Of a stretch of DNA of 64,000 nt, positions 2,729 through 56,686 are shown piece by piece; the first letter of the stretch is position 1; every line of letters starts with the position of its first letter. The stretch lies in the sequence record PZ452581.1. One strand, written 5' to 3'. Under the pieces are notes generated by a model. The model was given only the letters and a program-made list of their open reading frames with translations, had not been told where the DNA came from and searched no databases. This DNA comes from a phage. A program made the position numbers and the translations under genes.

Positions 2729-2805
2729 TTTATTCTCCTTTGTTTGTGTAAGATAATACTATCACAAAGGAACCATACTGTAAACAACTTTGTGCAATCT
2801 TTGGA

Positions 2806-2833
2806 AAATAAAAAAGGACTCCCGAAGGAGTCC
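2806..2833 (-). terminator. intrinsic terminator (GGACTCC-UUCG-GGAGTCC stem-loop plus U-run)
   Basis: Perfect 7-bp stem with tetraloop at 2816-2833, A-run on plus strand 2806-2815 (U-run on minus transcript), 5 nt after stop of basic-protein ORF. Confidence 0.7.
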
Positions 2834-2838
2834 TCAAC

Positions 2839-12320: not shown

Positions 12321-12371
12321 AAATTTTCCGCTTAGTTAATAGATAGTGACTCGTCCATGAGTCAAATTATA

Positions 12372-14636
12372 TCATAATTTACAGGATGAACAATCTTCAG
12401 CTTTTGGAGTTTCTATTTCATAATCATCAGTACCAGAACCATCGCGAGTATTATGATAATAGAAATTTTTTCCGCCAAAATACCAAAAATACAAAAGGTC
12501 ATCAATCATTATTGACATTGGAACCTTTCCTTTTGGAAAAATCTGCGGGTCATAATATGTATTCGCTGAAGCTGATTGACATACCCATTTAAGCATAATA
12601 GCTACCTGCGTAAGATAAGGTTTATTACCTTTCTTAGCTAATTTCCACGTATAATCATAGAGGTCTATGTTATGCTCAATATTGGGCACGACTTGATTAA
12701 AGGAACCCTCTTTTGATTCTTTAACAGAGACTGGTCCACGTGGAGGCTCGATACCGTTTGTACTGTTAGAAACTTGGGAAGATGACTCACATGGCATAAG
12801 TGCTGATAATGTGCTATTACGGATGCCAAAGAGCTTAAGGTCTTCCCGCAGCGACGACCAGTCACAAACGTATTTTGGAGCTGCGATTTGGTCAATCTTT
12901 TTATTGTACCAGTCGATAGGTAATTCGCCTCGAGACCAACGAGTGTCTGAATAATATTCGCAAGGTCCTTTTTCTTTGGCGAGTTTAATGGATGCTTTAA
13001 TGAGTCCATACTGTAATCTCTCAAATAGTTCATGTGTTAAATCGTTAGCATCTTCATAAGAAGCAAAATTACTTGCCAGCCAAGCTGCATAGTTAGTAAC
13101 ACCTACACCGAGATTTCGACGCTTTTTAGCTTTTTCTGCTTCAGGAACTGGATATCCTTGGTAATCCAAAAGATTATCAAGAGCACGAACTTGAACTTCT
13201 GCCAATTCATTAATTTTATCTTGGTCTTGCCAATCGAAGTTATCTAACACAAATGCAGATAACGTACACAGTCCAATTTCGGCATCAGGACTATTCACGT
13301 CATTTGTTGGAATAGCAATTTCACAACACAAGTTGCTCTGACGAATAGGTGCCTTTTCACGAATAAATGGAGTATAGTTATTCGTATTATCAATGAACTG
13401 CACATAAATCCTTGCTGTTCCTGAGCGTTCAGTCATGAGTAATTCAAACAGTTCACGGGCTTTAATACGCTTTTTACGAATATTAGGGTCTTTTTCTGCG
13501 GCTTCATATAATTCACGGAAACGGTCTTGGTCTTTAAAATAAGAATAATAAAGCTCACCACCCATTTCATGCGGACTGAACAAAGTAATGTAATCATTCC
13601 TTCCGAATCGTTCCATCATTAGGTCATTCAGTTGAACGCCATAATCCATATGACGGATACGGTTTTCTTCTACACCTTTGTTATTTTTCAAAACGAGAAG
13701 ATTTTCAACTTCCAAATGCCAAATAGGATAATAAGCAGTAGCAGCGCCGCCACGAATTCCACCCTGTGAGCATGATTTAACAGCAGTCTGAAAATGTTTC
13801 CAAAAAGGAATAACACCAGTATGACGTACTTCACCTGTGCCAATCTTAGAACCTTCAGCACGAATCATACCAACGTTAATACCAATTCCAGCGCGTTTGG
13901 AGATATATTCAACAATTGAAGCGGAAGCCTTATTGATAGACTTCAGCGAATCACCTGCCTCAATAACAACACATGAACTAAACTGTCGAGTCGGAGTACG
14001 ACAGCCAGCCATAATAGGAGTTGGCAATGAAATCTGTCGAGTAGATACTGCTTCATAAAAACGAATAACATGTTTTAATCTATCAACAGGTTCATCTTGA
14101 TGTAATGCCATTCCAATAGTCATAAATGCAAACTGTGGAGTTTCATAAATTTGACCAGTGGTTTTATCTTTAACTAAATATTTTTCTTTTAATTGCATCG
14201 CCCCGGAATAAGTAAATTCCATATCCCGCTCATGCTTAATTTTTGATTCTAAAAATGTAATTTCTTCGGCAGAATATTTTGACAACAATTCAGGGTCGTA
14301 TTTACCTTCATTTACACAGTAAGAAATATGGTCAATAAATGAGCATGGTTCATACTGACCATAAACATGCTTACGAAGAGCGAACATTAAACAGCGTGCA
14401 GCTACGTATTGATAATCAGGCTCTTCAACCGAAATAGAATTCGCAGCAGCCTTAATTACAATGGTTTGAATGTCATCAGTGGTCATTCCATCACGGAGAT
14501 ATGATTTAATATTTTCATATAATTCATAAGGATCTACAGATGTTCCTTCAGCTGCCCAAGATAAAACTTTAATAATTTTTTGCGGGTCAAAGCTCTGAGA
14601 AACACCACTACTTTTGATAATATTAATTAATTGCAT
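12372..14636 (-). CDS. nrdA: ribonucleotide reductase large subunit (class Ia R1)
   Basis: 754 aa; N-terminal ATP-cone, active-site SNLCCEI. Confidence 0.9.
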   Translation of the reverse strand: MQLINIIKSSGVSQSFDPQKIIKVLSWAAEGTSVDPYELYENIKSYLRDGMTTDDIQTIVIKAAANSISVEEPDYQYVAARCLMFALRKHVYGQYEPCSFIDHISYCVNEGKYDPELLSKYSAEEITFLESKIKHERDMEFTYSGAMQLKEKYLVKDKTTGQIYETPQFAFMTIGMALHQDEPVDRLKHVIRFYEAVSTRQISLPTPIMAGCRTPTRQFSSCVVIEAGDSLKSINKASASIVEYISKRAGIGINVGMIRAEGSKIGTGEVRHTGVIPFWKHFQTAVKSCSQGGIRGGAATAYYPIWHLEVENLLVLKNNKGVEENRIRHMDYGVQLNDLMMERFGRNDYITLFSPHEMGGELYYSYFKDQDRFRELYEAAEKDPNIRKKRIKARELFELLMTERSGTARIYVQFIDNTNNYTPFIREKAPIRQSNLCCEIAIPTNDVNSPDAEIGLCTLSAFVLDNFDWQDQDKINELAEVQVRALDNLLDYQGYPVPEAEKAKKRRNLGVGVTNYAAWLASNFASYEDANDLTHELFERLQYGLIKASIKLAKEKGPCEYYSDTRWSRGELPIDWYNKKIDQIAAPKYVCDWSSLREDLKLFGIRNSTLSALMPCESSSQVSNSTNGIEPPRGPVSVKESKEGSFNQVVPNIEHNIDLYDYTWKLAKKGNKPYLTQVAIMLKWVCQSASANTYYDPQIFPKGKVPMSIMIDDLLYFWYFGGKNFYYHNTRDGSGTDDYEIETPKAEDCSSCKL

Positions 14637-14953
14637 AAGTCCTCAACTTGAAAATCGTCTTTAAACAATCGGTTAACTATATGAGCTATTATATCACCAT
14701 GACACGGCTTTGGTTTACATGTGCATCCTAGCCTCATTCCACGTAAAGGCTCTAAATGTGCTTTAGTTATTTCTCCGGATTTAATTCGACGTATAAAATC
14801 TTTTTTGAATAATTCAATGGCAGCCTCCCGGCTGCCAGCATCTTTACCGACGTAATTTCCCCAAAATGTACCACGGTGAATATTAACATCAAAGTCGGAT
14901 TTATATTTATTCACTACCCGGCATAGACGGCCCGCGTGGTAATAATTCGTCAT
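14627..14953 (-). CDS. hypothetical Cys/His-motif protein (nrdA.1-like position)
   Basis: 108-aa ORF; [11 protein letters not shown] motif. Confidence 0.55.
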
Positions 14954-15182
14954 ATTGTTTTTCCGTTAAAACAGTAATATCATAATAACAATCAGAAGAA
15001 GTTTTAACTGTAGAAATTTTATTATCAAAATACTCACGAGTCATTTTATGAGTATAATATTTTTTACCATAAATTATAATAGGCTGTTCTGGTCCTGGAA
15101 CTTCTAACTCGCTTGGATTAGGAAGTGTAAAAAGAACAACACCAGAAGTATCCTTAAATCGTAAAATCATATATCCTCTCAA
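14907..15182 (-). CDS. hypothetical protein (nrdA.2-like position)
   Basis: 91-aa ORF overlapping neighbour. Confidence 0.5.
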
Positions 15183-15193
15183 TTAAATTAAAA

Positions 15194-16054
15194 TTACACC
15201 GCCATCTTTCCTTTCAAGACACCATGGGACTGATAATCTTTGAGAACGAAATCTCGTGCTGTCATATATTCAGTTAACCAATACATTTGAGTTTCAGTAT
15301 CGCATTGACTGAATCCATTAGGCCAATTAATACTGAGTTTGCATAGATCCATAGGAGTTCTATTTAATATCTCTTTGCATTGCTCAATATGGTTAGAATA
15401 AATGTGTGTATTACCACCCGAGAATACCAAATCGCCCGGAACTAGTTCACACATGTCAGCAACAATATGCAAAAGAGCAGCATAACTCGCGATGTTAAAT
15501 GGAAGACCGAGGAAAACATCTACCGAACGTTGATACCATTGGAGGTCAAGGTATCCGTTACGCACATTAAACTGATAGAACATATGACAAGGAGGTAATG
15601 CCATCTGCTTGAGTTCAGCTGGATTCCATGCCGACACAATTTGACGCCTATCGTTGGGAAATGTTTTAATACGATTAACAACTTCTACAATTTGATCTAC
15701 ACCACCAAAATCACGCCACTGTTTTCCGTAAATTGGACCAAGTTCACCGCTATGATAACCTAAGTCTTTGGCCTGGTTTTCGTAGTTTTCATCCCAAATT
15801 GTTTTTCCTGCAATTAAAGATCCATGAGTACGTTGACGTAAATCATTTACGTTAGTACTTCCTGATAAGAACCACAATAACTCAGAAATACATGCATTCC
15901 AGGCGAGCTTCTTAGTCGTTACTGCAGGAAAACCTTTAGTTAAATCCCAGCGTAATTTAGTACCGAACAAAGCAATTGTTCCTGTGCCTGTTCGGTCATC
16001 AGTTTCATAGCCATTTTCAAAAATGTCTTTAATTAAATCTTGGTATTGTTTCAT
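15194..16054 (-). CDS. td: thymidylate synthase
   Basis: 286 aa uninterrupted; ThyA active-site LPPCH; no group I intron. Confidence 0.95.
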   Translation of the reverse strand: MKQYQDLIKDIFENGYETDDRTGTGTIALFGTKLRWDLTKGFPAVTTKKLAWNACISELLWFLSGSTNVNDLRQRTHGSLIAGKTIWDENYENQAKDLGYHSGELGPIYGKQWRDFGGVDQIVEVVNRIKTFPNDRRQIVSAWNPAELKQMALPPCHMFYQFNVRNGYLDLQWYQRSVDVFLGLPFNIASYAALLHIVADMCELVPGDLVFSGGNTHIYSNHIEQCKEILNRTPMDLCKLSINWPNGFSQCDTETQMYWLTEYMTARDFVLKDYQSHGVLKGKMAV

Positions 16055-16098
16055 TTAGTACCTTATATAAATTATAATACATTTTATGAAGCTAATAA

Positions 16099-16446
16099 TC
16101 AATACGGTTTAGCATCAAATTTTCTTTCAATTTCAGGCGTAAAATACAATTCTTTACCACGCTTGGAAAAGCGACCAATAATATGATAATTATTCTCATC
16201 AAACGTGATATTGCCGATATCCATAGCTTTCAACCAAATATCGATATTTCTGTCAAGCTTTATATCAAAATTCCAATACGGAGAACTATTACCGAAAATA
16301 CTACAAGCGGATTCAGTGAAACAACTGCTATAAATCTTGTCTTTAGGAACTACTAATTGATAGACGCCTTTAATAAACTGAGGACCCTGCCATTTTGGTT
16401 GTTTCGCGTCTTTTTCTAATAGAATAGGGTAATAATTAAAATTCAT
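16099..16446 (-). CDS. hypothetical protein inserted between frd and td
   Basis: 115-aa ORF occupying the frd-td junction. Confidence 0.5.
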   Translation of the reverse strand: MNFNYYPILLEKDAKQPKWQGPQFIKGVYQLVVPKDKIYSSCFTESACSIFGNSSPYWNFDIKLDRNIDIWLKAMDIGNITFDENNYHIIGRFSKRGKELYFTPEIERKFDAKPY

Positions 16447-16465
16447 ATTTTCCGCCAGCGTTATT

Positions 16466-17292
<827 letters not shown>

Positions 17293-17303
17293 ATTATCTC
17301 CTA

Positions 17304-17636
17304 TTAAAAAGGATCAGGAACATATCCGCTAGCTTTAATCATTTTAATTAACGTTAACATTCCTTTGTTAACTGCTCGTGAGATTTCATCAAAAACTTCA
17401 TCACTAAAAAGTTCTAACACGCCCTTCTGAACTTTTAATTTACAGCCAATAATTTCTTCATCGCCTATAGTAAATTCATTACCACCAATTCCACCGAAAA
17501 ACTTAATTACGCCAGTTAACTGTCTTCCACGAGAATATGGATCATGTGATAAAGTAATATGAGTCACCCCAGGTACAGTTTTAAATTGACAGCGAATGTT
17601 TACTTGAGCAATTCCAGTTACATGAATGTCAGACAT
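17304..17636 (-). CDS. hypothetical protein (frd.2-like)
   Basis: 110-aa ORF. Confidence 0.55.
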   Translation of the reverse strand: MSDIHVTGIAQVNIRCQFKTVPGVTHITLSHDPYSRGRQLTGVIKFFGGIGGNEFTIGDEEIIGCKLKVQKGVLELFSDEVFDEISRAVNKGMLTLIKMIKASGYVPDPF

Positions 17637-17646
17637 AATATTTTCC

Positions 17647-17889
17647 TCAAACAGACTTTTTCACAGTTTTCCAATCAGCTTTAAACTGATCAACATCAGA
17701 ATGGTAAATCCAGAATCCTGCGCTTTCTCCATCTTCATAAAGAGGACATCCATCGCATTCATCTTCCCATCCCATATCACGCAAAAGACGTTCAGCTTTT
17801 TCAACAAGTTCAGAATCTTTACCGATGATATTAAAATACCATTTACCTCTAACTTCTGAATCTTTGATGCTTTGGCGTTGTAATCTCAT
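17647..17889 (-). CDS. hypothetical protein (frd.3-like)
   Basis: 80-aa ORF; early promoter motif at 17905-17947 upstream. Confidence 0.55.
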   Translation of the reverse strand: MRLQRQSIKDSEVRGKWYFNIIGKDSELVEKAERLLRDMGWEDECDGCPLYEDGESAGFWIYHSDVDQFKADWKTVKKSV

Positions 17890-17904
17890 TTTATTCTCCT
17901 CAGT

Positions 17905-17947
17905 AGTTGATAGGGTAATAGTATCACACTACTACCCTGTTGTAAAC
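17905..17947 (-). promoter_or_regulatory. early promoter-like element (GTTTAC, spacer, TG-extended -10)
   Basis: Minus strand reads GTTTACAACAGGGTAGTAGTGTGATACTATTACC. Confidence 0.5.
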
Positions 17948-17949
17948 AA

Positions 17950-18252
17950 TTATTTTTGAATTTTATCGAGCCACTTACCAAGCTTAATCATTTCTTTAGT
18001 AGCCTTTTCCATACTTCTGAACTTAACCAATAGAGGATAGGTATCGACACCCATAACTAAACTGGTTACAAGACTGTGTTCACCCACAAGCCATAATGAA
18101 TACGTTTGAATATCGAGTCCGTAATTTCTGTCTTTATGGACCCGTACACCCATCACTTCAAATTTCTCACTAGCTTTTTCTACCGCATCCAGGAAATCAT
18201 CTTTAGTCATATTAGGCCTTAAAAGTTTTTCGCAAAAGTTCAATGATTTCAT
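17950..18252 (-). CDS. hypothetical protein
   Basis: 100-aa ORF (start may be the internal Met). Confidence 0.5.
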   Translation of the reverse strand: MKSLNFCEKLLRPNMTKDDFLDAVEKASEKFEVMGVRVHKDRNYGLDIQTYSLWLVGEHSLVTSLVMGVDTYPLLVKFRSMEKATKEMIKLGKWLDKIQK

Positions 18253-18613
18253 CTACATTGTTTTCATCAACAATGCAGTGAATTTTTGTTACGTCAGAAA
18301 CCTTGTCTTCGACTTTATCTTCTTCAGAAGTTGGTTCTTTATATTCGCGGAAACAATAAAACTCTTCTTCACTAAGTTCAAAATAATCATCACCCATACC
18401 ATCATCATTATAGATTTCACCGTTAGCACAAATGATTTCGGTTACATAATCAAAGCCATCTAAACTTAATATTGATTTAACTTCAAACCAACCACCATTT
18501 TCTTGAATGATGCCGACCATATTAGCATTTGATGAACTAATATCAATGAAAGATTTAATACGGTGTGGATTTAACTCATATTTTTTGCCGATTTCCATTT
18601 TGATTTTCCTCAT
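18212..18613 (-). CDS. hypothetical acidic protein
   Basis: 133-aa ORF. Confidence 0.55.
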   Translation of the reverse strand: MRKIKMEIGKKYELNPHRIKSFIDISSSNANMVGIIQENGGWFEVKSILSLDGFDYVTEIICANGEIYNDDGMGDDYFELSEEEFYCFREYKEPTSEEDKVEDKVSDVTKIHCIVDENNVDEIIELLRKTFKA

Positions 18614-18643
18614 TTTAATAGGGGCTTGATAGCCCCTTGATAA

Positions 18644-18895
18644 TTATTGTTCAATCAGTCCCATGTAGAATTCTGCGTCTTCAGAATCCATGCCATCACA
18701 ATATTCATTAGCCATAAAGCGGGTGAGGTCTTCAAGAGGACCTTCAATGACAATAGAAAAATTGCAATAATTGGGATCATCATGAATACTTGTGATACTA
18801 AGTTCAGGATAACGATTACGAATAATCTCTTCAATATATTCAAAATCAACGATGTCAATATCAACTTTAGCCATATTATTTTCCTCTTTAATCAT
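18644..18895 (-). CDS. hypothetical acidic protein
   Basis: 83-aa ORF; promoter motif upstream at 18914-18947. Confidence 0.55.
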
Positions 18896-18913
18896 CAGCA
18901 GTATTGCCGATAG

Positions 18914-18947
18914 TTGTATAGTACCATAAAGCTTTATGCTTGTAAAC
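18914..18947 (-). promoter_or_regulatory. early promoter-like element
   Basis: Minus strand GTTTACAAGCATAAAGCTTTATGGTACTATACAACTATC; part of a 75-bp module repeated at 36065-36145. Confidence 0.55.
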
Positions 18948-18970
18948 CGTTTTGTGAAAAAATTTTTGAA

Positions 18971-18997
18971 ATAAAAAAGGGGACCTCTAGGGTCCCC
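18971..18997 (-). terminator. intrinsic terminator downstream of gene 32
   Basis: GGGGACC-loop-GGTCCCC hairpin at 18979-18997 followed on minus transcript by U-run (plus A-run 18973-18978). Confidence 0.7.
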
Positions 18998-19019
18998 AAT
19001 TAATTAGTAATATAATCTA

Positions 19020-19928
19020 TTAAAGGTCATTCAAAAGGTCATCCAGGTCCGTGTCATCAGCACTAGATGAACTGCCAGAGCTTGAGCTCATAAAATCATC
19101 TTCAGTTTTTGTGTTAAAATCATCAACATTGAATGCATCCAAATCATCAGCAACTTTATCAGCTTTCTTAGCAGCAGTTGCAGCGGCACCGCCCATCACA
19201 GCAGTTCCCATAACTTGACCGAATTTAGTATTCAGTTCTTCAAACGATTTGAATTTATCTTTAGAAGTCATTTCAGAAAGGTCAACCATTTGTTCGAACA
19301 GTTCTTTCTGGAAAGATTCATCGTCAATGTTTGGAATCGCAGATTGATTCAGGAATTTAGATTCGTCGTAGTTACTAAATCCAGAAACTTGTTTAACTTT
19401 CAGTACAAAGTTAGCACCTTCCCACGGACAAGTTACATCAACCGGAGTTTCACCCATTTCAACATCAACTGCAATCATTGCGTTGATTTTATCCCAGATT
19501 TTCTTACCGAAACGGTATTTAAATACTTTACCTTCATTTTCTGGAGCAGCTGGGTCTTTTACTACAAGAATGTTAGCCCAGTAAGAAGTTTTACGTTTAA
19601 CAAGACTGTACTCTTTATTGTCAGTGTTGTACAAATCATTTTTACTGATGTACTGACATACTGGACAAGAATCGTAATCACCGTGGGTAGATGAGCAATT
19701 TTCGATATACCATTTACCGTTTTTCTTGAAACCGTGATTTACAAGAATTGCGAATGGTGCTTGTTCATCATTTTTAGACGGAAGAAAACGAATTACTGCT
19801 TGACCGTTACCCGCATTGTCGAGTTTCAGTTTCCACTCGCCTTTATCTTCAGAAGAAAAACCACCTTTATTTCCAGCCAATTTAGCCATTTGTGCAGCGA
19901 GTTCAGCAGTAGATTTACGTTTAAACAT
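19020..19928 (-). CDS. 32: single-stranded DNA-binding protein
   Basis: 302 aa; [17 protein letters not shown]..., acidic Ser/Asp-rich C-terminus; recognised as T4 gp32. Confidence 0.95.
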
Positions 19929-20000
19929 TTTTATTTCCTTTTTAATTTAATTAACAGTTGGTGCTATGACGATGTATGACCTCATAGCTGGTCAGTGAGA
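19929..20000 (-). promoter_or_regulatory. gene 32 translational operator leader (pseudoknot region plus unstructured UUAAAUUAAA tract)
   Basis: Minus strand reads ...GCTATGAGGTCATACATCGTCATAGCACCAACTGTTAATTAAATTAAAAAGGAAATAAAAATG, matching the T4 gene 32 autoregulatory leader as I recall it. Confidence 0.6.
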
Positions 20001-20012
20001 TAATTATAATCT

Positions 20013-20020
20013 ATTTATAA
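20013..20020 (-). promoter_or_regulatory. late promoter TATAAATA upstream of gene 32
   Basis: Exact TATAAATA on minus strand. Confidence 0.5.
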
Positions 20021-20027
20021 TAAGCAA

Positions 20028-20681
20028 TTAATACTTACAAGATTTCACAGTTTCAATAAAAACTTTTTTAGCTTCCTGTGAATCAATATTTAAAATTTTT
20101 CTATAAGCCTTTAATTTTATAGAATAATTATTCCAGACTAAATTATCAGTCTGTTCATCATGTTTATCAATTATATTTAAAAACGAATCAAGCAAGATAA
20201 ACGTCTCAAACGAAATTATATTTGATTGAAGTAGTTTAAAAATATAACTTGATTGAACTTTTGGATTATACTCAAAAATTTCTTTAAAAGCAGAAACTTC
20301 AACTTTTTTACTAAAATAATAAATGTTGCGAATATCTTCTTCAAACTTAAATTTAATTTGCTTTAAGCGTCCGATATATTCACGATAAAACACAAGTGCA
20401 TCAGCGTCAGAGATGTCACCAATCCAAGCATCTTGGTTAGCAACCAAATTACTTATAAAGATTAAAGCAAGTTCCTTTAATTTATATTTTTCTGATAACT
20501 TCTGGAAAAAATACTTATCCCTTCGCTTTTGATAAGCGGCATCAGACACCCGCATGCACCAATTATACTTAATAACATCATACTTTCCATTCATATGTTG
20601 TTTTATCATTAAGTATAATTTATAAACTGATTTACCATCAATATATCTTTCACCACCAGCAGGCATGCGGAGTTTAATCAT
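20028..20681 (-). CDS. 59: gp59 helicase loader
   Basis: 217 aa; sequence recognised as T4 gp59. Confidence 0.9.
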   Translation of the reverse strand: MIKLRMPAGGERYIDGKSVYKLYLMIKQHMNGKYDVIKYNWCMRVSDAAYQKRRDKYFFQKLSEKYKLKELALIFISNLVANQDAWIGDISDADALVFYREYIGRLKQIKFKFEEDIRNIYYFSKKVEVSAFKEIFEYNPKVQSSYIFKLLQSNIISFETFILLDSFLNIIDKHDEQTDNLVWNNYSIKLKAYRKILNIDSQEAKKVFIETVKSCKY

Positions 20682-21025
20682 AGTAGAAAATCTAATGTAT
20701 TAGTTTTTTCACAACGAACAACAGAAGGACGTAAAAGATTTTCGTCAATGGCTTCTGACTGAATTTTTTCAATTATACCCGAAGGAATAAATTTAGCAAA
20801 TTGAGTTTCAGGAATAGAATTTTCTTCCAAGAATGCTGTCGTAGCTTCAAGATAACTCATTCCAAACTCTTCTACCATTTTTTCAATAATAAATCCATTT
20901 TCTTGACGATCAAGAAGCTTTGCGATTTCATCTTTTTCCTTTTTAAGGGAAAGTTCTTTTTCTGAAAGCCCGGCCTCATCGACCGGGCGAATATCATTTA
21001 GAGAAAACTGTGTCATAAAGTTCAA
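20678..21025 (-). CDS. 33: gp33 late transcription co-activator
   Basis: 115 aa, ATGA overlap with 59; position as in T4. Confidence 0.8.
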   Translation of the reverse strand: MNFMTQFSLNDIRPVDEAGLSEKELSLKKEKDEIAKLLDRQENGFIIEKMVEEFGMSYLEATTAFLEENSIPETQFAKFIPSGIIEKIQSEAIDENLLRPSVVRCEKTNTLDFLL

Positions 21026-21263
21026 CTACCTCTTCAGTTTCAGCTTCAAACACATCACGGTTATCTTTATGATACAAAGCTAATAGACGATTAAACATCT
21101 TACCATCAACGCCAAGTTCATCTTTAGCACGAATTCGAATATCTTTAATCAGTTCATTATAACCGGAAATTTTCAGTTTATGATCAGATGCTTCTTTAAT
21201 AAATTTAGCCAAGTCTTCGCCGTGGATAGCTTCATCAAATTCAACCATTTCTTTTTTAGCCAT
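20994..21263 (-). CDS. dsbA: double-stranded DNA-binding protein
   Basis: 89 aa, overlaps gene 33 start by 32 nt as expected from T4 synteny. Confidence 0.75.
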   Translation of the reverse strand: MAKKEMVEFDEAIHGEDLAKFIKEASDHKLKISGYNELIKDIRIRAKDELGVDGKMFNRLLALYHKDNRDVFEAETEEVVELYDTVFSK

Positions 21264-21271
21264 TATTCACC

Positions 21272-22189
21272 TCAAAATTCATTAATGCTATTAGTTAATT
21301 TAGAAAGACCCGCTTTTACAAAATATGAATAAATTTTGCCACGCGGTGGTAATTTATATGAATTATAGTAATTCACAATGTTTGAAGCAATATTATCAGG
21401 AATATAATCAAAATCAATTAGAACTAAATTTTCTTTATAACGATTATATTCAGATTCTGTGAGAAGCACCTTAGCTTGCTCACGGTCATTAGCAATAGCT
21501 TCAACGATTGAAGTTTTCATTGAAGGAGTTCGTTCACCTTCAACTTTGGTAAACCAAAAGTCAGATCGTACTTTAACTGAAGCAACGTTATCCTTTTTAT
21601 CGCCTTTAAGGATTTTAGTCATACAGTCAATTTCAGCAGAACCGCTTTTAATTTTAACCCATTTCTTATGCATCGGTGACCATTGCTTAACATTTGGATA
21701 TTTGTGAAGTTGAGTAAAGTCACCATCCGATGAAATGATTAAAATCTTGTGTCCTTCTAAAGAGAACTTTTTAACAAGAACAGCAATGTGGTCATCTGCT
21801 TCATACTTATCAATATCCATAACAATGTATGGCATATAAGCTTTCAATTCATCTATAACTTTGTGGCTGGATTCAAAATAACCTTCCCAGTCCCAAGTCG
21901 ATTCTTCTCGTGCTTTTCCACGGTTTTTCTTATAATAATACGCGAAATCACGACGCCAGTATCCAGATTTCGCGTTATCAATACACAGTACAATTTTAGT
22001 GTATCCAAGCGTTTTTGCTTTTTTGACATTAAACTTAATTGAGTTCAATATCAAATGACGAACCATTGATAAATTAATTTTTTCTTTATCTGGGAAGTTT
22101 ACTAAAGCAGTTGAAAGCGCAATTTGACTAAAGTCAATTAAGCAGATTCCTTCTTTGTAATCTTCATCCAGCATCATTTCTAAATCCAT
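21272..22189 (-). CDS. rnh: RNase H (5'-3' exonuclease, FEN family)
   Basis: Internal ATG at 22189 gives 305 aa starting MDLEMMLDEDYKEG; track start at 22204 is a TTG. Confidence 0.9.
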   Translation of the reverse strand: MDLEMMLDEDYKEGICLIDFSQIALSTALVNFPDKEKINLSMVRHLILNSIKFNVKKAKTLGYTKIVLCIDNAKSGYWRRDFAYYYKKNRGKAREESTWDWEGYFESSHKVIDELKAYMPYIVMDIDKYEADDHIAVLVKKFSLEGHKILIISSDGDFTQLHKYPNVKQWSPMHKKWVKIKSGSAEIDCMTKILKGDKKDNVASVKVRSDFWFTKVEGERTPSMKTSIVEAIANDREQAKVLLTESEYNRYKENLVLIDFDYIPDNIASNIVNYYNSYKLPPRGKIYSYFVKAGLSKLTNSINEF

Positions 22190-22213
22190 ATGAACCTCGT
22201 TCAATTAGTGAGA

Positions 22214-22248
22214 TTTCTATTATATACCATCCGAATCTTAAAGTAAAC
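22214..22248 (-). promoter_or_regulatory. early promoter for rnh (GTTTAC ... TGGTATATAAT)
   Basis: Minus strand GTTTACTTTAAGATTCGGATGGTATATAATAG. Confidence 0.6.
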
Positions 22249-22251
22249 AAG

Positions 22252-22259
22252 TATAAATA
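22252..22259 (+). promoter_or_regulatory. late promoter TATAAATA for gene 34
   Basis: Exact TATAAATA 34 nt before the ATG at 22294; divergent from rnh promoter. Confidence 0.7.
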
Positions 22260-22293
22260 CTTATTATTGAAAACACAATAGGAGCCCGGGAGA

Positions 22294-25200
22294 ATGGCCG
22301 AGATTAAAAGAAAGTTCAGAGCAGAAGATGGTCTGGACGCAGGTGGTGATAAAATAATCAACGTAGCTTTAGCTGATCGTACCGTAGGAACTGACGGTGT
22401 TAACGTTGATTACCTAATTCAAGAAAACACAGTTCAACAATACGATCCAACTCGTGGATATTTAAAAGATTTTGTAATCATTTATGATAACCGCTTTTGG
22501 GCTGCTATAAATGATATTCCAAAACCGGCAGGAGCTTTTAATAGCGGGCGCTGGAGAGCATTACGTACTGATGCTAACTGGATTACAGTTTCATCTGGTT
22601 CATATCAATTAAAATCCGGTGAAGCTATTTCGGTTAACACTGCAGCTGGTAATGATATTACATTTACTTTACCATCTACTCCAATTGACGGTGATACTAT
22701 CGTTCTCCAAGACATTGGAGGAAAACCTGGAGTTAACCAAGTTTTAATTGTAGCTCCAGTACAAAGTATTGTAAACTTTAGAGGCGAACAAGTACGTTCA
22801 GTACTAATGACTCATCCAAAGTCACAGTTAGTTTTAATTTTTAGTAATCGTCTGTGGCAAATGTATGTAGCTGATTATAGTAGAGAAGCTGTAGTTGTAA
22901 CACCAGCGAATACTTATCAAGCGCAATCCAACGATTTTATCGTACGTAGATTTACTTCTGCTGCACCGATAAATATTAAACTTCCGAGATTTGCTAATCA
23001 TGGCGATATTATTAATTTCGTCGATTTGGATAAATTAAATCCGCTTTATCATACAATTGTTACAACATATGATGAAACCACTTCAGTACAAGAAGTTGGA
23101 ACTCATTCTATTGAAGGCCGTACATCTATTGACGGTTTCTTGATGTATGACGATAATGAGAAATTATGGAGATTATTTGACGGGGACAGTAAAGCACGTT
23201 TACGTATCATAACAACTAATTCAAACATTCGTCCAAATGAAGAAGTTATGGTATTTGGTGCGAATAATGGAACAACTCAAACAATTGAGCTTCAGCTTCC
23301 AACTAATATTTCTGTTGGTGATACTGTTAAAATTTCCATGAATTACATGAGAAAAGGACAAACAGTTAAAATCAAAGCTGCCGGTGAAGATAAAATTGCT
23401 TCTTCAGTTCAATTGCTGCAATTCCCAAAACGTTCAGAATATCCGCCTGAAACTAAATGGGTAACTGTTCAAGAATTAGTTTTTAACGGTGAAACTAATT
23501 ATGTTCCAGTTTTACAGCTTGCTTATATAGAAGATTCTGATGGAAAATACTGGGTTGTACAACAAAACGTTCCAACCGTAGAAAGAGTTGATTCTTTAAA
23601 TGATTCTACTAGAGCAAGATTAGGCGTAATTGCTTTAGCTACACAGGCTCAAGCTAACGTCGATTTAGAAAATTCTCCACAAAAAGAATTAGCAATTACT
23701 CCAGAAACATTAGCTAACCGTACTGCTACAGAAACTCGTAGAGGTATCGCAAGAATAGCAACTACTGCTCAAGTGAATCAGAACACCACATTCTCTTTTG
23801 CTGATGATATTATCATCACTCCTAAAAAGCTGAATGAAAGAACTGCTACAGAAACTCGCAGAGGTGTTGCAGAAATTGCTACTCAGCAAGAAACAAACGC
23901 AGGAACAGATGATACAACCATCATTACTCCTAAAAAGCTTCAAGCTCGTCAAGGTTCTGAATCATTATCTGGTATTGTAACTTTTGTATCTACTGCAGGT
24001 GCTACTCCAGCTTCTAGCCGTGAATTAAATGGTACGAATGTTTATAATAAAAACACTAATAATTTAGTTGTTTCGCCAAAAGCTTTGGATCAATATAAAG
24101 CTACTCCAACGCAACAAGGTGCAGTAATTTTAGCAGTTGAAAGTGAAGTAATTGCTGGACAAAGCCAAGAAGGATGGGCAAATGCGGTTGTAACGCCAGA
24201 AACGTTACATAAAAAGACATCAACTGATGCAAGAATTGGTTTAATTGAAATTGCTACGCAAAGTGAAGTTAATACAGGAACTGATTATACTCGTGCAGTC
24301 ACTCCTAAAACTTTAAATGACCGTAGAGCAACTGAAAGTTTAAGTGGTATAGCTGAAATTGCTACACAAGTTGAATTCGACGCAGGCGTCGACGATACTC
24401 GTATCTCTACACCATTAAAAATTAAAACCAGATTTAATAGTACTGATCGTACTTCTGTTGTTGCTCTATCTGGATTAGTTGAATCAGGAACTCTCTGGGA
24501 CCATTATACCCTTAATATTCTTGAAGCAAATGAGACGCAACGTGGTACACTTCGTGTAGCTACACAAGTTGAAGCTGCTGCAGGAACATTAGATAATGTT
24601 TTAATAACTCCTAAAAAGCTTTTAGGTACTAAATCTACCGAATCGCAAGAAGGTGTTATTAAAGTTGCAACTCAAGCTGAAACCGTAGCTGGAACATCAG
24701 CAAATACTGCTGTATCTCCAAAAAATTTAAAATGGATTGTGCAGAGTGAACCTACTTGGGCAGCTACTACTGCAATAAGAGGTTTTGTTAAAACTTCATC
24801 TGGTTCAATTACATTCGTTGGTAATGATACAGTCGGTTCTACCCAAGATTTAGAACTGTATGAGAAAAATAGCTATGCGGTATCACCATATGAATTAAAC
24901 CGTGTATTAGCAAATTATTTGCCATTAAAAGCAAAAGCTGCTGATACAAATTTATTGGATGGTCTAGATTCATCTCAGTTCATTCGTAGGGATATCGCAC
25001 AGACGGTTAATGGTTCACTAACCTTAACCCAACAAACGAATCTGAGTGCCCCTCTTGTATCATCTAGTACTGCTACGTTTGGTGGATCAGTTTCGGCAAA
25101 TAGTACATTAACTATTTCTAATACTGGAACGGCAACTCGTCTGATTTTTGAGAAAGGACCTCAAACTGGAACTAACCCAGCACAGACGATGACTATCAGA

Positions 25201-26163
25201 GTTTGGGGAAATCAGTTTGGTGGCGGATCAGATACAACGCGTTCTACTGTATTTGAAGTTGGTGATGAAACATCTAATCACTTTTATTCTCAACGTAATA
25301 AAGATGGGAATATAACGTTTAGCATTAATGGTACTGTGATGCCAATAAATGTTAACGCTTCAGGCACGTTAAATGCGAATGGCGTTGCAACATTCGGTCG
25401 TTCAGTTACAGCCAACGGTGAATTCATTAGCAAGTCTGCAAATGCTTTCAGAGCAATTAGTGGTGATTACGGATTCTTTATTCGCAATGATGCTGCTAAT
25501 ACCTATTTTATGCTCACTGCATCCGGTGATCAGACTGGCGGATTTAATGGATTACGTCCTTTGTCTATTAATAATGCATCTGGCCAAGTAACGATTGGTG
25601 AAAGCTTAATAATTGCCAAAGGTGCTACTATAAATTCAGGTGGTTTGACTGTTAACTCGAGAATTCGTTCTCAGGGTACTAAAACATCTGATTTATACAC
25701 CCGTGCACCAACATCTGATACTGTAGGATTCTGGTCAATTGATATTAACGATTCAGCCACTTATAACCAGTTCCCGGGTTATTTTAAAATGGTTGAAAAA
25801 ACTAATGAAGTGACTGGGCTTCCATACTTAGAACGTGGCGAAGAAGTTAAATCTCCTGGTACACTGACTCAGTTTGGTAACACACTTGATTCGCTTTACC
25901 AAGATTGGATTACTTATCCAACGACGCCGGAAGCGCGTACCACTCGCTGGACACGTACATGGCAGAAAACCAAAAACTCTTGGTCAAGTTTTGTTCAGGT
26001 ATTTGACGGAGGTAACCCTCCTCAGCCGTCTGATATCGGTGCTTTACCGTCTGATAATGCTACAATGGGAAATCTTACTATTCGTGATTTCTTACGAATT
26101 GGTAATGTTCGCATTATTCCTGACCCAGCGAATAAAACGGTTAAATTTGAATGGGTTGAATAA
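22294..26163 (+). CDS. 34: long tail fibre proximal subunit
   Basis: 1289 aa; internal repeats of TETxRGxxxIATQxE...TPKKL type; GGAG Shine-Dalgarno. Confidence 0.95.
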   Translation: MAEIKRKFRAEDGLDAGGDKIINVALADRTVGTDGVNVDYLIQENTVQQYDPTRGYLKDFVIIYDNRFWAAINDIPKPAGAFNSGRWRALRTDANWITVSSGSYQLKSGEAISVNTAAGNDITFTLPSTPIDGDTIVLQDIGGKPGVNQVLIVAPVQSIVNFRGEQVRSVLMTHPKSQLVLIFSNRLWQMYVADYSREAVVVTPANTYQAQSNDFIVRRFTSAAPINIKLPRFANHGDIINFVDLDKLNPLYHTIVTTYDETTSVQEVGTHSIEGRTSIDGFLMYDDNEKLWRLFDGDSKARLRIITTNSNIRPNEEVMVFGANNGTTQTIELQLPTNISVGDTVKISMNYMRKGQTVKIKAAGEDKIASSVQLLQFPKRSEYPPETKWVTVQELVFNGETNYVPVLQLAYIEDSDGKYWVVQQNVPTVERVDSLNDSTRARLGVIALATQAQANVDLENSPQKELAITPETLANRTATETRRGIARIATTAQVNQNTTFSFADDIIITPKKLNERTATETRRGVAEIATQQETNAGTDDTTIITPKKLQARQGSESLSGIVTFVSTAGATPASSRELNGTNVYNKNTNNLVVSPKALDQYKATPTQQGAVILAVESEVIAGQSQEGWANAVVTPETLHKKTSTDARIGLIEIATQSEVNTGTDYTRAVTPKTLNDRRATESLSGIAEIATQVEFDAGVDDTRISTPLKIKTRFNSTDRTSVVALSGLVESGTLWDHYTLNILEANETQRGTLRVATQVEAAAGTLDNVLITPKKLLGTKSTESQEGVIKVATQAETVAGTSANTAVSPKNLKWIVQSEPTWAATTAIRGFVKTSSGSITFVGNDTVGSTQDLELYEKNSYAVSPYELNRVLANYLPLKAKAADTNLLDGLDSSQFIRRDIAQTVNGSLTLTQQTNLSAPLVSSSTATFGGSVSANSTLTISNTGTATRLIFEKGPQTGTNPAQTMTIRVWGNQFGGGSDTTRSTVFEVGDETSNHFYSQRNKDGNITFSINGTVMPINVNASGTLNANGVATFGRSVTANGEFISKSANAFRAISGDYGFFIRNDAANTYFMLTASGDQTGGFNGLRPLSINNASGQVTIGESLIIAKGATINSGGLTVNSRIRSQGTKTSDLYTRAPTSDTVGFWSIDINDSATYNQFPGYFKMVEKTNEVTGLPYLERGEEVKSPGTLTQFGNTLDSLYQDWITYPTTPEARTTRWTRTWQKTKNSWSSFVQVFDGGNPPQPSDIGALPSDNATMGNLTIRDFLRIGNVRIIPDPANKTVKFEWVE

Positions 26164-26171
26164 GAGGTATT

Positions 26172-27287
26172 ATGGAAAAATTTATGGCAGAGTTTGGACA
26201 AGGATATGTCCAAACGCCATTTTTATCGGAAAGTAATTCAGTAAGATACAAAATAAGTATAGCGGGTTCTTGCCCGCTTTCTACTGCAGGACCATATGTT
26301 AAATTTCAAGATAATCCCGTAGGAAGTCAAACATTTAGCGCAGGCCTTCATTTAAGAGTTTTTGACCCTTCCACCGGAGCATTAGTTGATAGTAAGTCAT
26401 ATGCTTTTTCGACTTCAAATGATACTACATCAGCTGCTTTTGTTAGTTTCATGAATTCTTTGGCAAATAATAGAATTGTTGCTATATTAACTAGTGGAAA
26501 GGTTAATTTTCCTCCTGAAGTAGTATCTTGGTTAAGAACCGCAGGAACGTCTGCTTTTCCATCTGATTCTATATTGTCAAGATTCGACGTATCATATGCT
26601 GCTTTTTATACTTCTTCTAAAAGAGCTATCGCATTAGAGCATGTTAAACTGAGTAATAGAAAAAGCACAGATGATTATCAAACTATTTTAGATGTTGTAT
26701 TTGACAGTTTAGAAGATGTAGGAGCTACCGGGTTTCCAAGAAGAACGTATGAAAGCGTTGAGCAATTCATGTCAGCGGTTGGTGGAACTAATAACGAAAT
26801 TGCGCGTCTACCAACTTCAGCTGCTATAAGTAAATTATCTGATTATAATTTAATTCCCGGAGATGTTCTTTATCTTAAAGCTCAGTTATATGCTGATGCT
26901 GATTTACTTGCGCTTGGAACTACAAATATATCTATCCGTTTTTATAATGCATCTAATGGATATATTTCCTCGACACAAGCTGAGTTTACTGGACAGGCTG
27001 GGTCTTGGGAATTAAAGGAAGACTATGTAGTTGTTCCAGAAAATGCAGTTGGATTTACGATATATGCACAAAGAACTGCTCAAGCGGGACAAGGCGGTAT
27101 GCGAAATTTAAGCTTTTCTGAAGTATCAAGAAATGGCGGAATTTCAAAACCCGCTGAATTTGGCGTCAACGGCATTCGTGTTAATTATATCTGTGAATCT
27201 GCTTCACCTCCGGATATAATGGTACTTCCTACACAAGCATCGTCTAAAACTGGTAAAGTGTTTGGGCAAGAATTTAGAGAAGTATAA
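26172..27287 (+). CDS. 35: long tail fibre hinge connector
   Basis: 371 aa, directly downstream of 34 with AAGAGG Shine-Dalgarno. Confidence 0.9.
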   Translation: MEKFMAEFGQGYVQTPFLSESNSVRYKISIAGSCPLSTAGPYVKFQDNPVGSQTFSAGLHLRVFDPSTGALVDSKSYAFSTSNDTTSAAFVSFMNSLANNRIVAILTSGKVNFPPEVVSWLRTAGTSAFPSDSILSRFDVSYAAFYTSSKRAIALEHVKLSNRKSTDDYQTILDVVFDSLEDVGATGFPRRTYESVEQFMSAVGGTNNEIARLPTSAAISKLSDYNLIPGDVLYLKAQLYADADLLALGTTNISIRFYNASNGYISSTQAEFTGQAGSWELKEDYVVVPENAVGFTIYAQRTAQAGQGGMRNLSFSEVSRNGGISKPAEFGVNGIRVNYICESASPPDIMVLPTQASSKTGKVFGQEFREV

Positions 27288-36038: not shown

Positions 36039-36075
36039 TTTCTAATCTCCGTAATTCTGTATCAGTAGTTGATAG

Positions 36076-36109
36076 TTGTATAGTACCACAGTATGCTTTG
36101 GTTGTAAAC
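36076..36109 (-). promoter_or_regulatory. early promoter-like element upstream of motA
   Basis: Minus strand GTTTACAACCAAAGCATACTGTGGTACTATACAACTATC. Confidence 0.55.
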
Positions 36110-36130
36110 CGTTTTGTGAAAAAAATTTTT

Positions 36131-36162
36131 GAAATAAAAAAGGGAGAGCCGAGGCTCTCCCT
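36131..36162 (-). terminator. intrinsic terminator
   Basis: GGGAGAGCC-GAG-GGCTCTCCC hairpin followed by U-run on minus transcript. Confidence 0.7.
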
Positions 36163-36167
36163 AAAAA

Positions 36168-36317
36168 TTACTGCATGACTGTGATAACTGTCATGATAAC
36201 ACGTTGAATTCCGAACGCAAGAAGACCTCCTGCTACGGCTGGAACAACACCTAAACCCGCCAGTAAAATGCTACCGGATACTAATGCAGCGCTTGTAATA
36301 CCTATGAATGGACTCAT
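36168..36317 (-). CDS. small hydrophobic membrane peptide (49 aa)
   Basis: ATG overlaps gene 52 stop; sequence MSPFIGITSALVSGSILLAGLGVVPAVAGGLL...; below track cutoff. Confidence 0.4.
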   Translation of the reverse strand: MSPFIGITSAALVSGSILLAGLGVVPAVAGGLLAFGIQRVIMTVITVMQ

Positions 36318-39080: not shown

Positions 39081-39194
39081 TCACATAAATTCAAAGTAAG
39101 CGTTTAATACATCAATCATTAAAACGATTGGGAATATACTCAAAACTATTAGTATTATAACTACATTCCATATAGCTTTAATAATCTTTTTCAT
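39081..39194 (-). CDS. small membrane peptide (37 aa)
   Basis: ATG at 39194 with GGAGGA Shine-Dalgarno; hydrophobic; early promoter upstream. Confidence 0.45.
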   Translation of the reverse strand: MKKIIKAIWNVVIILIVLSIFPIVLMIDVLNAYFEFM

Positions 39195-39216
39195 TTTTGT
39201 TCCTCCGTAGTTGATA

Positions 39217-39251
39217 GTTGTATAGTACCACGGAAGAACAGTCTTGTAAAC
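39217..39251 (-). promoter_or_regulatory. early promoter-like element
   Basis: Minus strand GTTTACAAGACTGTTCTTCCGTGGTACTATACAACTATC. Confidence 0.55.
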
Positions 39252-39436
39252 AACTTTTTTAAAAATATTCGTAATAAATGTGAATACCAACTACTACCGC
39301 TGAAACCTGTGCAACCCACCACGCACAAGCAATAAGTACAGAATTCAAAATTTTCATAATAACCTCATTACAAAAGTAAATGTTAAACAAATTACTGGAA
39401 TACTAATTAACCAAACAAAACACCACCACAGTGAAC

Positions 39437-39700: not shown

Positions 39701-39729
39701 TTTCCGCTCCAAATCCGTATCAGTTGATA

Positions 39730-39764
39730 GTTGTATAGTACCACGGTCCTTGTGGTATGTAAAC
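39730..39764 (-). promoter_or_regulatory. early promoter-like element
   Basis: GTTTAC then TGGTACTATACAACTATC on minus strand. Confidence 0.55.
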
Positions 39765-39783
39765 TGTTTTGTGAAATTTTTTT

Positions 39784-40341
39784 TTAAATGGAAAGATACC
39801 ATCCGTTGTAGTTGCTTTTTCTTACAACCTTACGAAGGTCTTCTCTGTCACCGATGAACTTCGGAGTGTACTGGATGACACCTGGATGAATTTCTTTAGT
39901 GTTGAATATAATTATACAGTCAGCGACTTGATGATTTAGAATGGGCCCTAAATTTATTCCAGAACCATATGGATACTCTCCGCTGCATCCCGTTGTTACC
40001 GAAATCCAACGCGAGTCAGTTTGATGTGTCTTAACTTCTACACGAAGCCCACAGTATTTTGGATGTGCTAAAACATCCCATGCATATGTGTACGGATCAT
40101 CGACATCTTCTTGGCCTTTATTGACATATCCGCTTAGCCAATCTGCCACAAAAAACTCTGCGTACACAGCGATACGGCATCTTTCGATAACTTCTGCCTT
40201 ATCCTGATTTGGATTTTGTTTTAAAGAGTATCTTGCTGTATCAGCAATTTTGACCTTCATTTCACTAGTCAAGTCACTGTTCGATAGGGTAAATGTCGGA
40301 ATCTGAAATAGTCTCTGTAAACCCGGATTCGTTTTCTGCAT
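39784..40341 (-). CDS. denB: endonuclease IV-like (assignment by size and synteny)
   Basis: 185 aa between rIIB and ndd block, as T4 denB. Confidence 0.65.
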   Translation of the reverse strand: MQKTNPGLQRLFQIPTFTLSNSDLTSEMKVKIADTARYSLKQNPNQDKAEVIERCRIAVYAEFFVADWLSGYVNKGQEDVDDPYTYAWDVLAHPKYCGLRVEVKTHQTDSRWISVTTGCSGEYPYGSGINLGPILNHQVADCIIIFNTKEIHPGVIQYTPKFIGDREDLRKVVRKSNYNGWYLSI

Positions 40342-56589: not shown

Positions 56590-56649
56590 AGTGCTCTCCT
56601 CTATAAGATAATTCTATTATACCATACTCATTTTGATATGTAAACTGCA

Positions 56650-56680
56650 AAAACGAAAAAAGGAACCCCGAAGGATTCCT
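56650..56680 (-). terminator. intrinsic terminator downstream of soc
   Basis: Hairpin AGGAACC-CCGAA-GGAUUCCU followed by U-run on minus transcript. Confidence 0.6.
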
Positions 56681-56686
56681 TAAATT

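Follow-up and report, generated by a model that had tools for sequence, protein, structure and literature searches.

Two intergenic segments of a phage genome, one downstream of gene 32 and the other upstream of motA, resemble each other over a length at which a terminator and a promoter appear to be fused. What is shared between these two junctions, what function would each of them serve, and how has the resemblance been kept? These questions were addressed in the whole 64,000-nucleotide stretch of DNA that was analysed (record PZ452581.1, called the window below; all coordinates are positions in it) and by comparison with related genomes. The first-pass annotation had described the segment downstream of gene 32 (copy 1) as one of two dispersed copies of a promoter-terminator module, the second being that upstream of motA (copy 2).

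The phage was assigned to Tequatrovirus (T4-like): both loci were 96-99% identical to complete Tequatrovirus genomes and 96-97% identical to T4, and the 96 nt spanning copy 1 were 100% identical in ime09 and slur03 and 99% identical in T4. Copy 1 sits between gene 32 and frd.3 and copy 2 between motA.1 and motA, all four genes being on the minus strand. Gene 32 is the upstream transcription unit ending at copy 1, and motA.1 is the final gene of the unit ending at copy 2, with gene 52 upstream of it (36314-37642). In the window, segG is absent beside gene 32. The favoured reading, given a probability of about 0.9, is that both copies are T4-type operon boundaries, in which a predicted intrinsic terminator abuts a putatively very strong early promoter, within a block that is probably kept alike by selection and by ectopic exchange.

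Anatomy of the two junctions

The features of both junctions, and of the related sites in the window, are listed in Table 1. On the minus strand both sites read hairpin, U-run, GTTTAC and a TG-extended -10, and the first-pass annotation had the order and the spacing right. Every structural element that it named for an intrinsic terminator fused to the promoter of the next early unit is present at both sites, as a predicted feature.

Table 1. Positions of the junction components, the flanking genes and the related sites in the window
Feature	Position	Strand	Basis or remark
gene 32 CDS (ssDNA-binding protein)	19020..19928	-	ORF translation ends ...DLDDLLNDL; matches T4 gene 32 annotation; stop codon 19020-19022
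Copy 1 predicted hairpin GGGGACC-CTAGA-GGTCCCC	18979..18997	-	7-bp GC stem; RNA fold -14.3 kcal/mol; best minus-strand terminator-like site in 1-20000
Copy 1 shared block	18909..18978	-	U-run TTTTTTATTT at 18969-18978
Copy 1 UP element region C-AAAAATTTTTT-CACAAAACG	18948-18968	-	sequence
Copy 1 -35 GTTTAC	18942-18947	-	sequence
Copy 1 18-nt spacer AAGCATAAAGCTTTATGG	18924-18941	-	TGn at 18924-18926
Copy 1 -10 TACTAT	18918-18923	-	predicted +1 A at 18911, from the -10 position
frd.3 CDS and locus-specific leader GGCAATACTGCTGATGATTAAAGAGGAAAATAAT	18644..18908	-	ATG 18874-18872; T4 annotation: frd.3 downstream of gene 32
motA.1 CDS (49 aa, hydrophobic)	36168..36317	-	annotation of Aplg8, RB14 and T6; stop codon 36168-36170
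Copy 2 predicted hairpin AGGGAGAGC-CTCG-GCTCTCCCT	36141..36162	-	9-bp stem; -18.6 kcal/mol; z = -4.1; best minus-strand terminator-like site in 20001-40000
Copy 2 shared block	36071..36141	-	U-run TTTTTTATTT at 36132-36141
Copy 2 UP element region	36110-36131	-	sequence
Copy 2 -35 GTTTAC	36104-36109	-	sequence
Copy 2 18-nt spacer AACCAAAGCATACTGTGG	36086-36103	-	sequence
Copy 2 -10 TACTAT	36080-36085	-	predicted +1 A at 36073, from the -10 position
motA CDS and leader AACTACTGATACAGAATTACGGAGATTAGAAA	35403..36070	-	ATG 36038-36036; motA annotated in all relatives
Third family member	39726..39800	-	GTTTAC 39759-39764; directly downstream of denB, ndd hyperplastic region
Fourth family member	39190..39290	-	GTTTAC 39246-39251; upstream of ndd.4-like ORF; identical TGGTACTATACAACTATC block
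Site of the same repeat family	47708-47782		63%
Terminator-promoter fusion, similar geometry	2750..2835	-	hairpin GAGGACTCC-TTCG-GGAGTCCTT at 2814-2835, then TTTTTTATTTT, then CACAAAGTT-GTTTAC 2780-2785
Terminator-promoter fusion, shorter spacing	56616..56681	-	hairpin 56660-56681; GTTTAC 56640-56645; TG-TATAAT

The hairpin of copy 1 follows the stop codon of gene 32 by 22 nt and that of copy 2 follows the stop codon of motA.1 by 6 nt; U6AUUU comes directly after both. Rho-independent terminators are annotated at both positions in the wV7 record (one of them at the copy 2 position), three terminator annotations stand at the motA.1 position in the Aplg8 record, and five of six T4-like genomes retain a predicted terminator after gene 32 (PMC1524935). 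The stems were kept in 13 frd.3 loci and 10 motA loci, in which the main variation was a flip of the whole hairpin with the stem intact. No compensatory double substitutions in the stems were found among these loci, so that the pattern is one of conservation and not of covariation. Rfam scans of both regions gave no family near its gathering score and only sub-threshold hits, which were triggered by the terminator hairpin. A bidirectional terminator was considered and rejected: read on the plus strand, the hairpins precede AATTAATTAG or TAAAAATTAC, without a T-run.

The four best minus-strand terminator-like sites (18997-18979, 2835-2814, 36162-36141 and 56681-56660) all lie directly upstream of an early-promoter site, and terminator-promoter fusion is a recurrent design in this phage. 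This placement also bears on a different view of the hairpins, namely that their main role is in RNA stability or processing, as 3' protective stem-loops or nuclease barriers, or else as structures at the DNA level, and that they stand next to promoters incidentally. A 3' hairpin would add to mRNA stability. Among T4 messages that of gene 32 is the most stable (PMC3014915), and the copy 1 hairpin is no folding-energy outlier, being unexceptional when compared with shuffles of its own GC-rich segment (z = -1.7). However, the canonical U6AUUU found after both hairpins would be needless in a pure stability role, the adjacency of all four best sites to early promoters argues for designed insulation, and a stem-loop of the published promoter-early stem-loop (PeSL) type is reported to cut lacZ read-through about as much as rrnB T1 (PMC2839356). 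A mainly stabilising or structural role was judged extremely improbable. Terminator and stability roles are not mutually exclusive.

Downstream of the predicted terminators, GTTTAC and TACTAT are separated by 18 nt at both sites; counted from TTTACA, the spacing of the -10 hexamer is 17 bp. The extended -10 is TGG-TACTAT in both copies, and the TG ahead of the second hexamer was flagged by a promoter scan. At copy 2, positions -59 to -38 read TCAAAAATTTTTTTCACAAAAC and agree with the UP-element consensus at 13 of its 14 specified positions; copy 1, in which this sequence is displaced by one base, matches 11 of 14 in the same frame and, by eye, all 14 when read one base over. The consensus string is reportedly that of Estrem et al. 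Both predicted promoters lie about 37 nt upstream of a start codon on the same strand (motA or frd.3), each ATG being preceded by a Shine-Dalgarno (SD) sequence; at copy 1 the leader carries AAAGAGGAAAA ahead of the frd.3 ATG at 18874. TACTAT agrees with TATAAT at only 4 of 6 positions, and both promoters scored 9/12 in a generic sigma-70 scan, no better than many background hits; confidence in them comes instead from the T4-specific extended consensus and from their position.

T4 early promoters combine UP, -35, TGn and -10 elements with additional consensus regions and out-compete host promoters, and motA is an early product (Hinton 2010, PMC2988021); in their consensus, GTTTAC occupies -36 to -31 and an A-rich segment -40 to -44 (Nolan et al. 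2006, PMC1524935). By sequence, both predicted promoters belong to this T4 early promoter (Pe) class, with which they have in common GTTTAC at -36 to -31, the 17-bp spacing, TGn, a TAnnnT -10, an A/T-rich UP region with an A-run at -40 to -44, the extra conserved positions at the start site and a location upstream of early genes. Primary lists of T4 early promoters are said to be those of Wilkens and Rueger and of Miller et al. 2003. Nothing essential sets the two copies apart from the class, within which they form a tight subfamily (the TGGTACTATACAACTATC block and a near-identical UP region) and are more alike than the class consensus demands.

In the operon-boundary reading, the Rho-independent terminator (GC hairpin and U6AUUU) would end the upstream unit: gene 32 transcripts at copy 1 and the 52-motA.1 unit at copy 2. 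Directly after the U-run, without a spacer, would come a sigma-70 early promoter of very high strength, made up of a full UP element, GTTTAC at -36 to -31, TGn and TACTAT; from it host RNA polymerase would start the next unit immediately after infection (frd.3 onward at copy 1, motA at copy 2). The anatomy is a direct observation; termination, and initiation at the predicted +1, we infer from sequence grammar, homology to T4 and literature summaries. A literature search for genome-wide maps of T4 transcript 5' and 3' ends found none that was usable, and a DksA RNA-seq paper mentions no promoters at these coordinates.

Extent of the repeat and its family

In a repeat search, 18909-18983 and 36071-36145 formed the top direct-repeat family of the window (75 nt, 80% identical without gaps). 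When gaps were allowed, 68 of 77 columns matched (88%), and the earlier figure of about 85% identity over about 75 bp was a fair one. The copies agree in three exact blocks of 18, 23 and 25 nt (on the plus strand GATAGTTGTATAGTACCA, TTGTAAACCGTTTTGTGAAAAAA and AAAAAATTTTTGAAATAAAAAAGGG), between which lie a diverged 18-nt spacer and a single 1-nt indel within a T-run homopolymer, the extra T being in copy 2. The shared block is about 72 nt long, covers the predicted promoter between about -67 and +3, and consists of the terminator U-run and the RNA-polymerase contact region, whereas the hairpin stems of the two copies are unrelated and their spacers and leaders differ. Within the span first proposed for the repeat (18905-18997), the U-run and the promoter are indeed common to both copies, but the hairpin that it also takes in is not shared by copy 2.

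The window contains 39 repeated 20-mers, compared with 0 in 50 first-order Markov simulations. For the comparison with other promoters, the 19 GTTTAC-N18-TAnnnT sites on the minus strand were compared pairwise over the same 75 positions (171 pairs). Mean identity was 44% (sd 7%), the pair of copies 1 and 2 was the top outlier at 80% and the next-best pair reached 69%; as the first-pass annotation had supposed, the alignment of the copies holds more than the promoter consensus. Over the 36 nt upstream of the -35 the two copies were 83% identical, against a mean of 37%, while their 18-nt spacers differed at 9 of 18 positions, a likeness no greater than average. The resemblance of the copies is far beyond chance.

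The likeness could nonetheless have arisen by pure convergence, that is, by optimisation for the same RNA polymerase contacts, with neither common descent nor exchange. The identical blocks do coincide with functional elements (U-run, UP, -35, TGn/-10 and start region), the non-contact spacer differs at half of its positions, and T4 early promoters are, according to reviews, under strong selection (PMC2988021). The other promoter pairs are under the same selection, however, and remain far less alike than copies 1 and 2; the spacers of related genomes, described below, also count against convergence.

The exact 18-mer TGGTACTATACAACTATC is present at four of the 19 minus-strand early-promoter-like sites. 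Paired with the copies over the same 75 positions, the site at 39764 was 69% identical and that at 39251 about 60%. The pair resemblance and the recurrence of the exact 18-mer at four sites make the repeat a subfamily of T4 early promoters and not a two-copy element: the description as two dispersed copies gives way to a multi-copy family, to which 39726-39800 (69%) and 47708-47782 (63%) also belong and to which the site at 39251 is related. Membership is plain from the sequences themselves; the third member carries the same CACAAAAC-GTTTAC and TGGTACTATACAACTATC blocks, with ATACCACAAGGACCGTGG as its spacer. The module at 2785-2835, located between rIII and 30.9 as judged by offset to T4, has TTTTTTATTTT and CACAAAG-GTTTAC in common with the family.

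In a BLAST search with the 96-nt query, 4-6 places were found in nearly every Tequatrovirus genome among the matches listed, and the size of the family was put at roughly 5-6 BLAST-detectable copies per genome. Only 6 loci were obtained when IMG/VR was scanned for TTCACAAAACGGTTTACAA as an exact pattern; this was not enough to work at population level, and the GenBank phage collection was used instead.

Signatures of exchange between promoter copies

The frd.3 and motA junctions were taken from further genomes, giving an allele survey of 13 frd.3 loci and 10 motA loci; donor loci were taken from three genomes. The motA junction was almost invariant among the sampled genomes. The frd.3 junction kept its own hairpin and its own leader (GGCAATACTGCTGAT...) in every case, and its 18-nt spacer occurred in four types, as follows. 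Type a (the window and T4) is identical to the spacer of the nrdC.11/nrdC.10 intergenic promoter of T4, RB14 and T6, a locus that is itself a further terminator-promoter module (hairpin GGGAGCC-TTCG-GGCTCCC, with the same U-run and UP region). Type b, seen in RB14, has the same 18 letters as the motA spacer, so that in phages of this type nothing distinguishes copy 1 from copy 2 between the U-run and +3; an 80-nt query of type b was matched at 100% in R5505, bov9_1, bov10K1 and EH2. Type c, found with variants of 1-3 nt in 9 of the 13 sampled frd.3 loci, corresponds to the e.8 promoter as found in T4 and T6: 50/50 nt are the same in T6 frd.3 and T4 e.8, and e.8 of T6 has the frd.3 variant of KMB22. 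Finally, type d (ESh29) shares 17 of its 18 positions with the spacer of the promoter downstream of denB. Counts from type-specific BLAST searches with 80-nt queries overlapped (281 + 336 + 137, more than the roughly 510 genomes) because blastn extends through a mismatched spacer, and they do not discriminate between types.

Spacers of unrelated early promoters were on average 36% identical, from which the chance probability of an 18/18 match is about 1e-8. Pure convergence cannot account for functionally neutral spacers that are letter-identical across loci (frd.3 and motA in RB14, frd.3 and nrdC.10 in T4, and frd.3 of T6 and e.8 of T4); it is already largely refuted and was considered very unlikely.

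The donor loci kept their own spacer type in every genome examined whereas frd.3 varied, and the simplest reading of this difference is repeated short-patch conversion into frd.3. The replacements of the frd.3 promoter core are bounded by conserved blocks. The leaders are mosaic as well, AACTACTGATACAGAA being common to motA and e.8 and AACTGATACGGATTTGGAG to nrdC.10 and the copy at 39764. In ACG-C40, the nrdC.11/nrdC.10 module is split at its GTTTAC region by an insertion of three genes (encoding a ModB-like ADP-ribosylase, a 49-aa ORF and a DUF4031 protein), and the inserted cassette is bounded by such modules; at its internal junction, a hairpin one base different from that of gene 32 stands next to a type-a promoter. 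These signatures of exchange are observed in the genomes compared, and the pattern of polymorphism at frd.3 indicates that short-patch ectopic gene conversion probably took place.

The proposal that the copies may provide recombination substrates is supported by this comparison of related genomes, with short conversions or cassette insertions as the probable form. A reciprocal crossover between the direct copies 1 and 2 would delete 17 kb of essential genes (the interval holds 32, 59, 33, rnh, 34-38, t, asiA and motA), and productive exchanges would therefore be confined to those two forms. By their sequences, the copies are probable substrates for conversion and exchange between co-infecting genomes and not for viable deletion.

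A link between SegG-induced breaks in gene 32 and the frd.3 polymorphism was considered as an idea: in the few genomes checked there was no visible correlation, segG being carried by T4 and KMB22 and lacking in RB14 and T6 without the promoter type tracking it, and the window itself has no segG.

A footprint of mobility would be another way to account for the dispersed copies, which would then be self-mobilising cassettes, or targets of a dedicated recombinase or homing nuclease, in place of passive substrates of homologous recombination. The ACG-C40 insertion, bounded by a gene-32-type hairpin and promoter at another locus, could be taken in this sense, as could the hairpin loops flipped among phages; the PeSL authors detected mini-circles and speculated that the GGGG...CCCC stem-loop may be recognised by a specific protein (PMC2839356). 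Yet the copies are accompanied by neither a recombinase gene nor terminal repeats, and no two of the stems at gene 32, motA.1, nrdC.11 and rIII are alike, which leaves no common stem for a protein to recognise. The exchanged tracts stop where homology stops, as homology-driven repair predicts, and in the few genomes checked the promoter type does not vary with segG, which the window lacks by gene 32. Dedicated mobility was judged highly improbable.

Two reasons for the likeness at many loci are proposed under the operon-boundary reading. Selection would hold UP, -35, TGn and -10 close to optimal. The copies would also exchange sequence through ectopic homologous recombination, in the form of short-patch gene conversion and of inserted cassettes, since patches of this length are within the reach of T4 recombination; strand invasion or template switching would be the mechanism. 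A wider proposition was given about even odds: that the early-promoter modules of Tequatrovirus form a concerted-evolution family with the frd.3 promoter as an exchange hotspot, where short-patch ectopic gene conversion would have replaced the core on at least three occasions from donors 17 to about 90 kb away (nrdC.10, motA and denB-downstream, with an older exchange with e.8), with no gene gained or lost. The direction and number of these putative conversion events were deduced from the 13 frd.3 loci and, for the donor loci, from three genomes.

Relation to known systems and significance

The copies are of a known kind: the published T4 early promoter class fused to an intrinsic terminator, of the PeSL type. 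PeSL cassettes have been described as repeated, conserved over about 100 bp and acting as recombination points (Arbiol et al. 2010, PMC2839356; Comeau et al. 2014, PMC4122927). There, the PST/T4-type consensus is TTTACW-N17-TAYWAT with a stem-loop just upstream of the promoter, and a swap of ndd.4/.5 in the T4/PST pair is the worked example (PMC2839356, PMC4122927). The junctions described here agree with these cassettes in joining a stem-loop terminator to a strong early promoter, in ending in an SD and ATG, and in occurring as several copies conserved over roughly 70-100 bp. They agree also in acting as exchange points, since indel or replacement junctions of close relatives fall inside the element (ACG-C40, frd.3). 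Two family members, those at 39251 and 39764, belong to the ndd region, for which Comeau et al. inferred a swap mediated by PeSLs (PMC4122927).

The agreement is not complete. PeSLs are located preferentially in hyperplastic regions near variable ORFs, as are the copies at 39251, 39764 and nrdC.10, whereas copies 1 and 2 flank the conserved genes 32 and motA. Moreover, the hairpins of copies 1 and 2 are ordinary locus-specific terminators, by prediction, without a shared stem motif. Finally, frd.3 exhibits replacement of the promoter core alone, with no ORF gained or lost, which the available portions of PMC2839356 and PMC4122927 do not describe.

Lambdoid morons (PMC2839356, PMC1524935) are likewise transcriptionally insulated, with a terminator and a promoter at the borders of the gene unit, and the ACG-C40 insertion between nrdC.11 and nrdC.10 is built in the same way. 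They differ in that moron flanks are neither conserved repeats nor thought to mediate insertion (PMC2839356); here the flanks are a repeated family that contains the junctions.

In their function the two junctions re-find textbook T4 regulation, in which intrinsic terminators insulate the early units and host-type promoters of exceptional strength restart them, and the recurrence of such composite junctions and their role in recombination have already been published as the PeSL model. The practical value lies in the correct annotation of two operon boundaries in the window; in addition, the repeats flag places at which the assembly or alignment of T4-like genomes can mislead. The comparative side result is of modest specialist interest: identical cores at different loci, together with the four alternative cores at frd.3, are direct sequence evidence for ectopic homogenising and reshuffling of dispersed regulatory repeats of 50-70 bp in a virulent phage. 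If true, conversion at frd.3 would swap promoters in a way that goes further than the ORF-shuffling of PeSLs, and the frd.3 alleles would form a natural series for testing the effect of the spacer on early-promoter strength.

Repeats and hairpins of the window

The coordinates of the features are compiled in the table below. A further member of the repeat family of early-promoter modules was found in degenerate form: this copy retains TGGTACTAT and the A/T-rich upstream part, its GTTTAC is replaced by ATATAC, and it could be half a module or one that has decayed.

The most exact repeat of the window is a 49-nt pair. When the pair is read on the minus strand, a start codon and a ribosome-binding region would fall in each copy, an arrangement suggestive of two small paralogous genes lying side by side. 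Where the window aligns to gene 34, which encodes the proximal long tail fibre, the direct repeats probably belong to the coding sequence as internal repeats. For the GGGGCC-GAAG-CCCC hairpin family, the hairpin at 40407-40424, located between rIIB/denB.1 and denB, scores as a terminator whichever strand is read, and the annotation of Aplg8 likewise places terminators on both strands at this hairpin.

Repeats, hairpins and inserted genes, with window positions unless an accession is specified
Feature	Position	Details
Fourth repeat-family member, degenerate	47708-47782	63% to copy 1 (gene 32/frd.3 module)
Direct repeat, 49 nt	59350-59398 and 59708-59756	98% identical; copies 358 nt apart
Several direct repeats, 29-69 nt	23695-24620	65-83% identity; within the gene 34 alignment
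GGGGCC-GAAG-CCCC type hairpins (opposite strand: UUCG)	1898-1941, 40393-40450, 40626-40665, 45907-45946	
ACG-C40 insert genes	NC_019399.1 50300-52900	ModB-like ADP-ribosylase; 49-aa ORF; DUF4031 protein

Insertions and mosaic leaders

The interval of the window between genes 32 and 59 (19929-20027) lacks the segG homing-endonuclease gene, as in RB14 and T6 and unlike T4 and KMB22, where segG is present at this position. In phage ACG-C40 (locus L031), three genes are inserted between nrdC.11 and nrdC.10. The junctions of this insert are located within early-promoter modules, and at one junction the gene-32 terminator hairpin recurs with a single-base difference.

The 5' leaders past the shared promoter block are also mosaic (window 36039-36070 and 39690-39725; related-phage loci L019 and L020): AACTACTGATACAGAA is common to the motA and e.8 leaders, and AACTGATACGGATTTGGAG is common to the leaders of nrdC.10 and of the gene downstream of denB.

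Possible inversions at terminator hairpins and a small inversion at an early promoter

Among the phages, the terminator hairpins of copy 1 and copy 2 (the motA.1/motA module) each occur in two forms that are exact reverse complements (orthologues L009-L016 and L024-L030). The stem is the same in both forms and the loop reads CTAGA or TCTAG for copy 1 (18979-18997), and CTCG or CGAG for copy 2 (36141-36162). The same promoter type is found with either hairpin orientation (T6 versus KMB22, PhiZZ30 and FriedrichZschokke). This pattern suggests recurrent loop inversion, via template switching or cruciform-mediated recombination.

In T4 KJ477684.1 (L009), a 14-nt segment (4471-4484) is, as remarked by the depositors, the inverted complement of the older T4 sequence, and in their words it 'corrects the early promoter Pe133295'. 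This segment is a further small inversion at an early-promoter junction.
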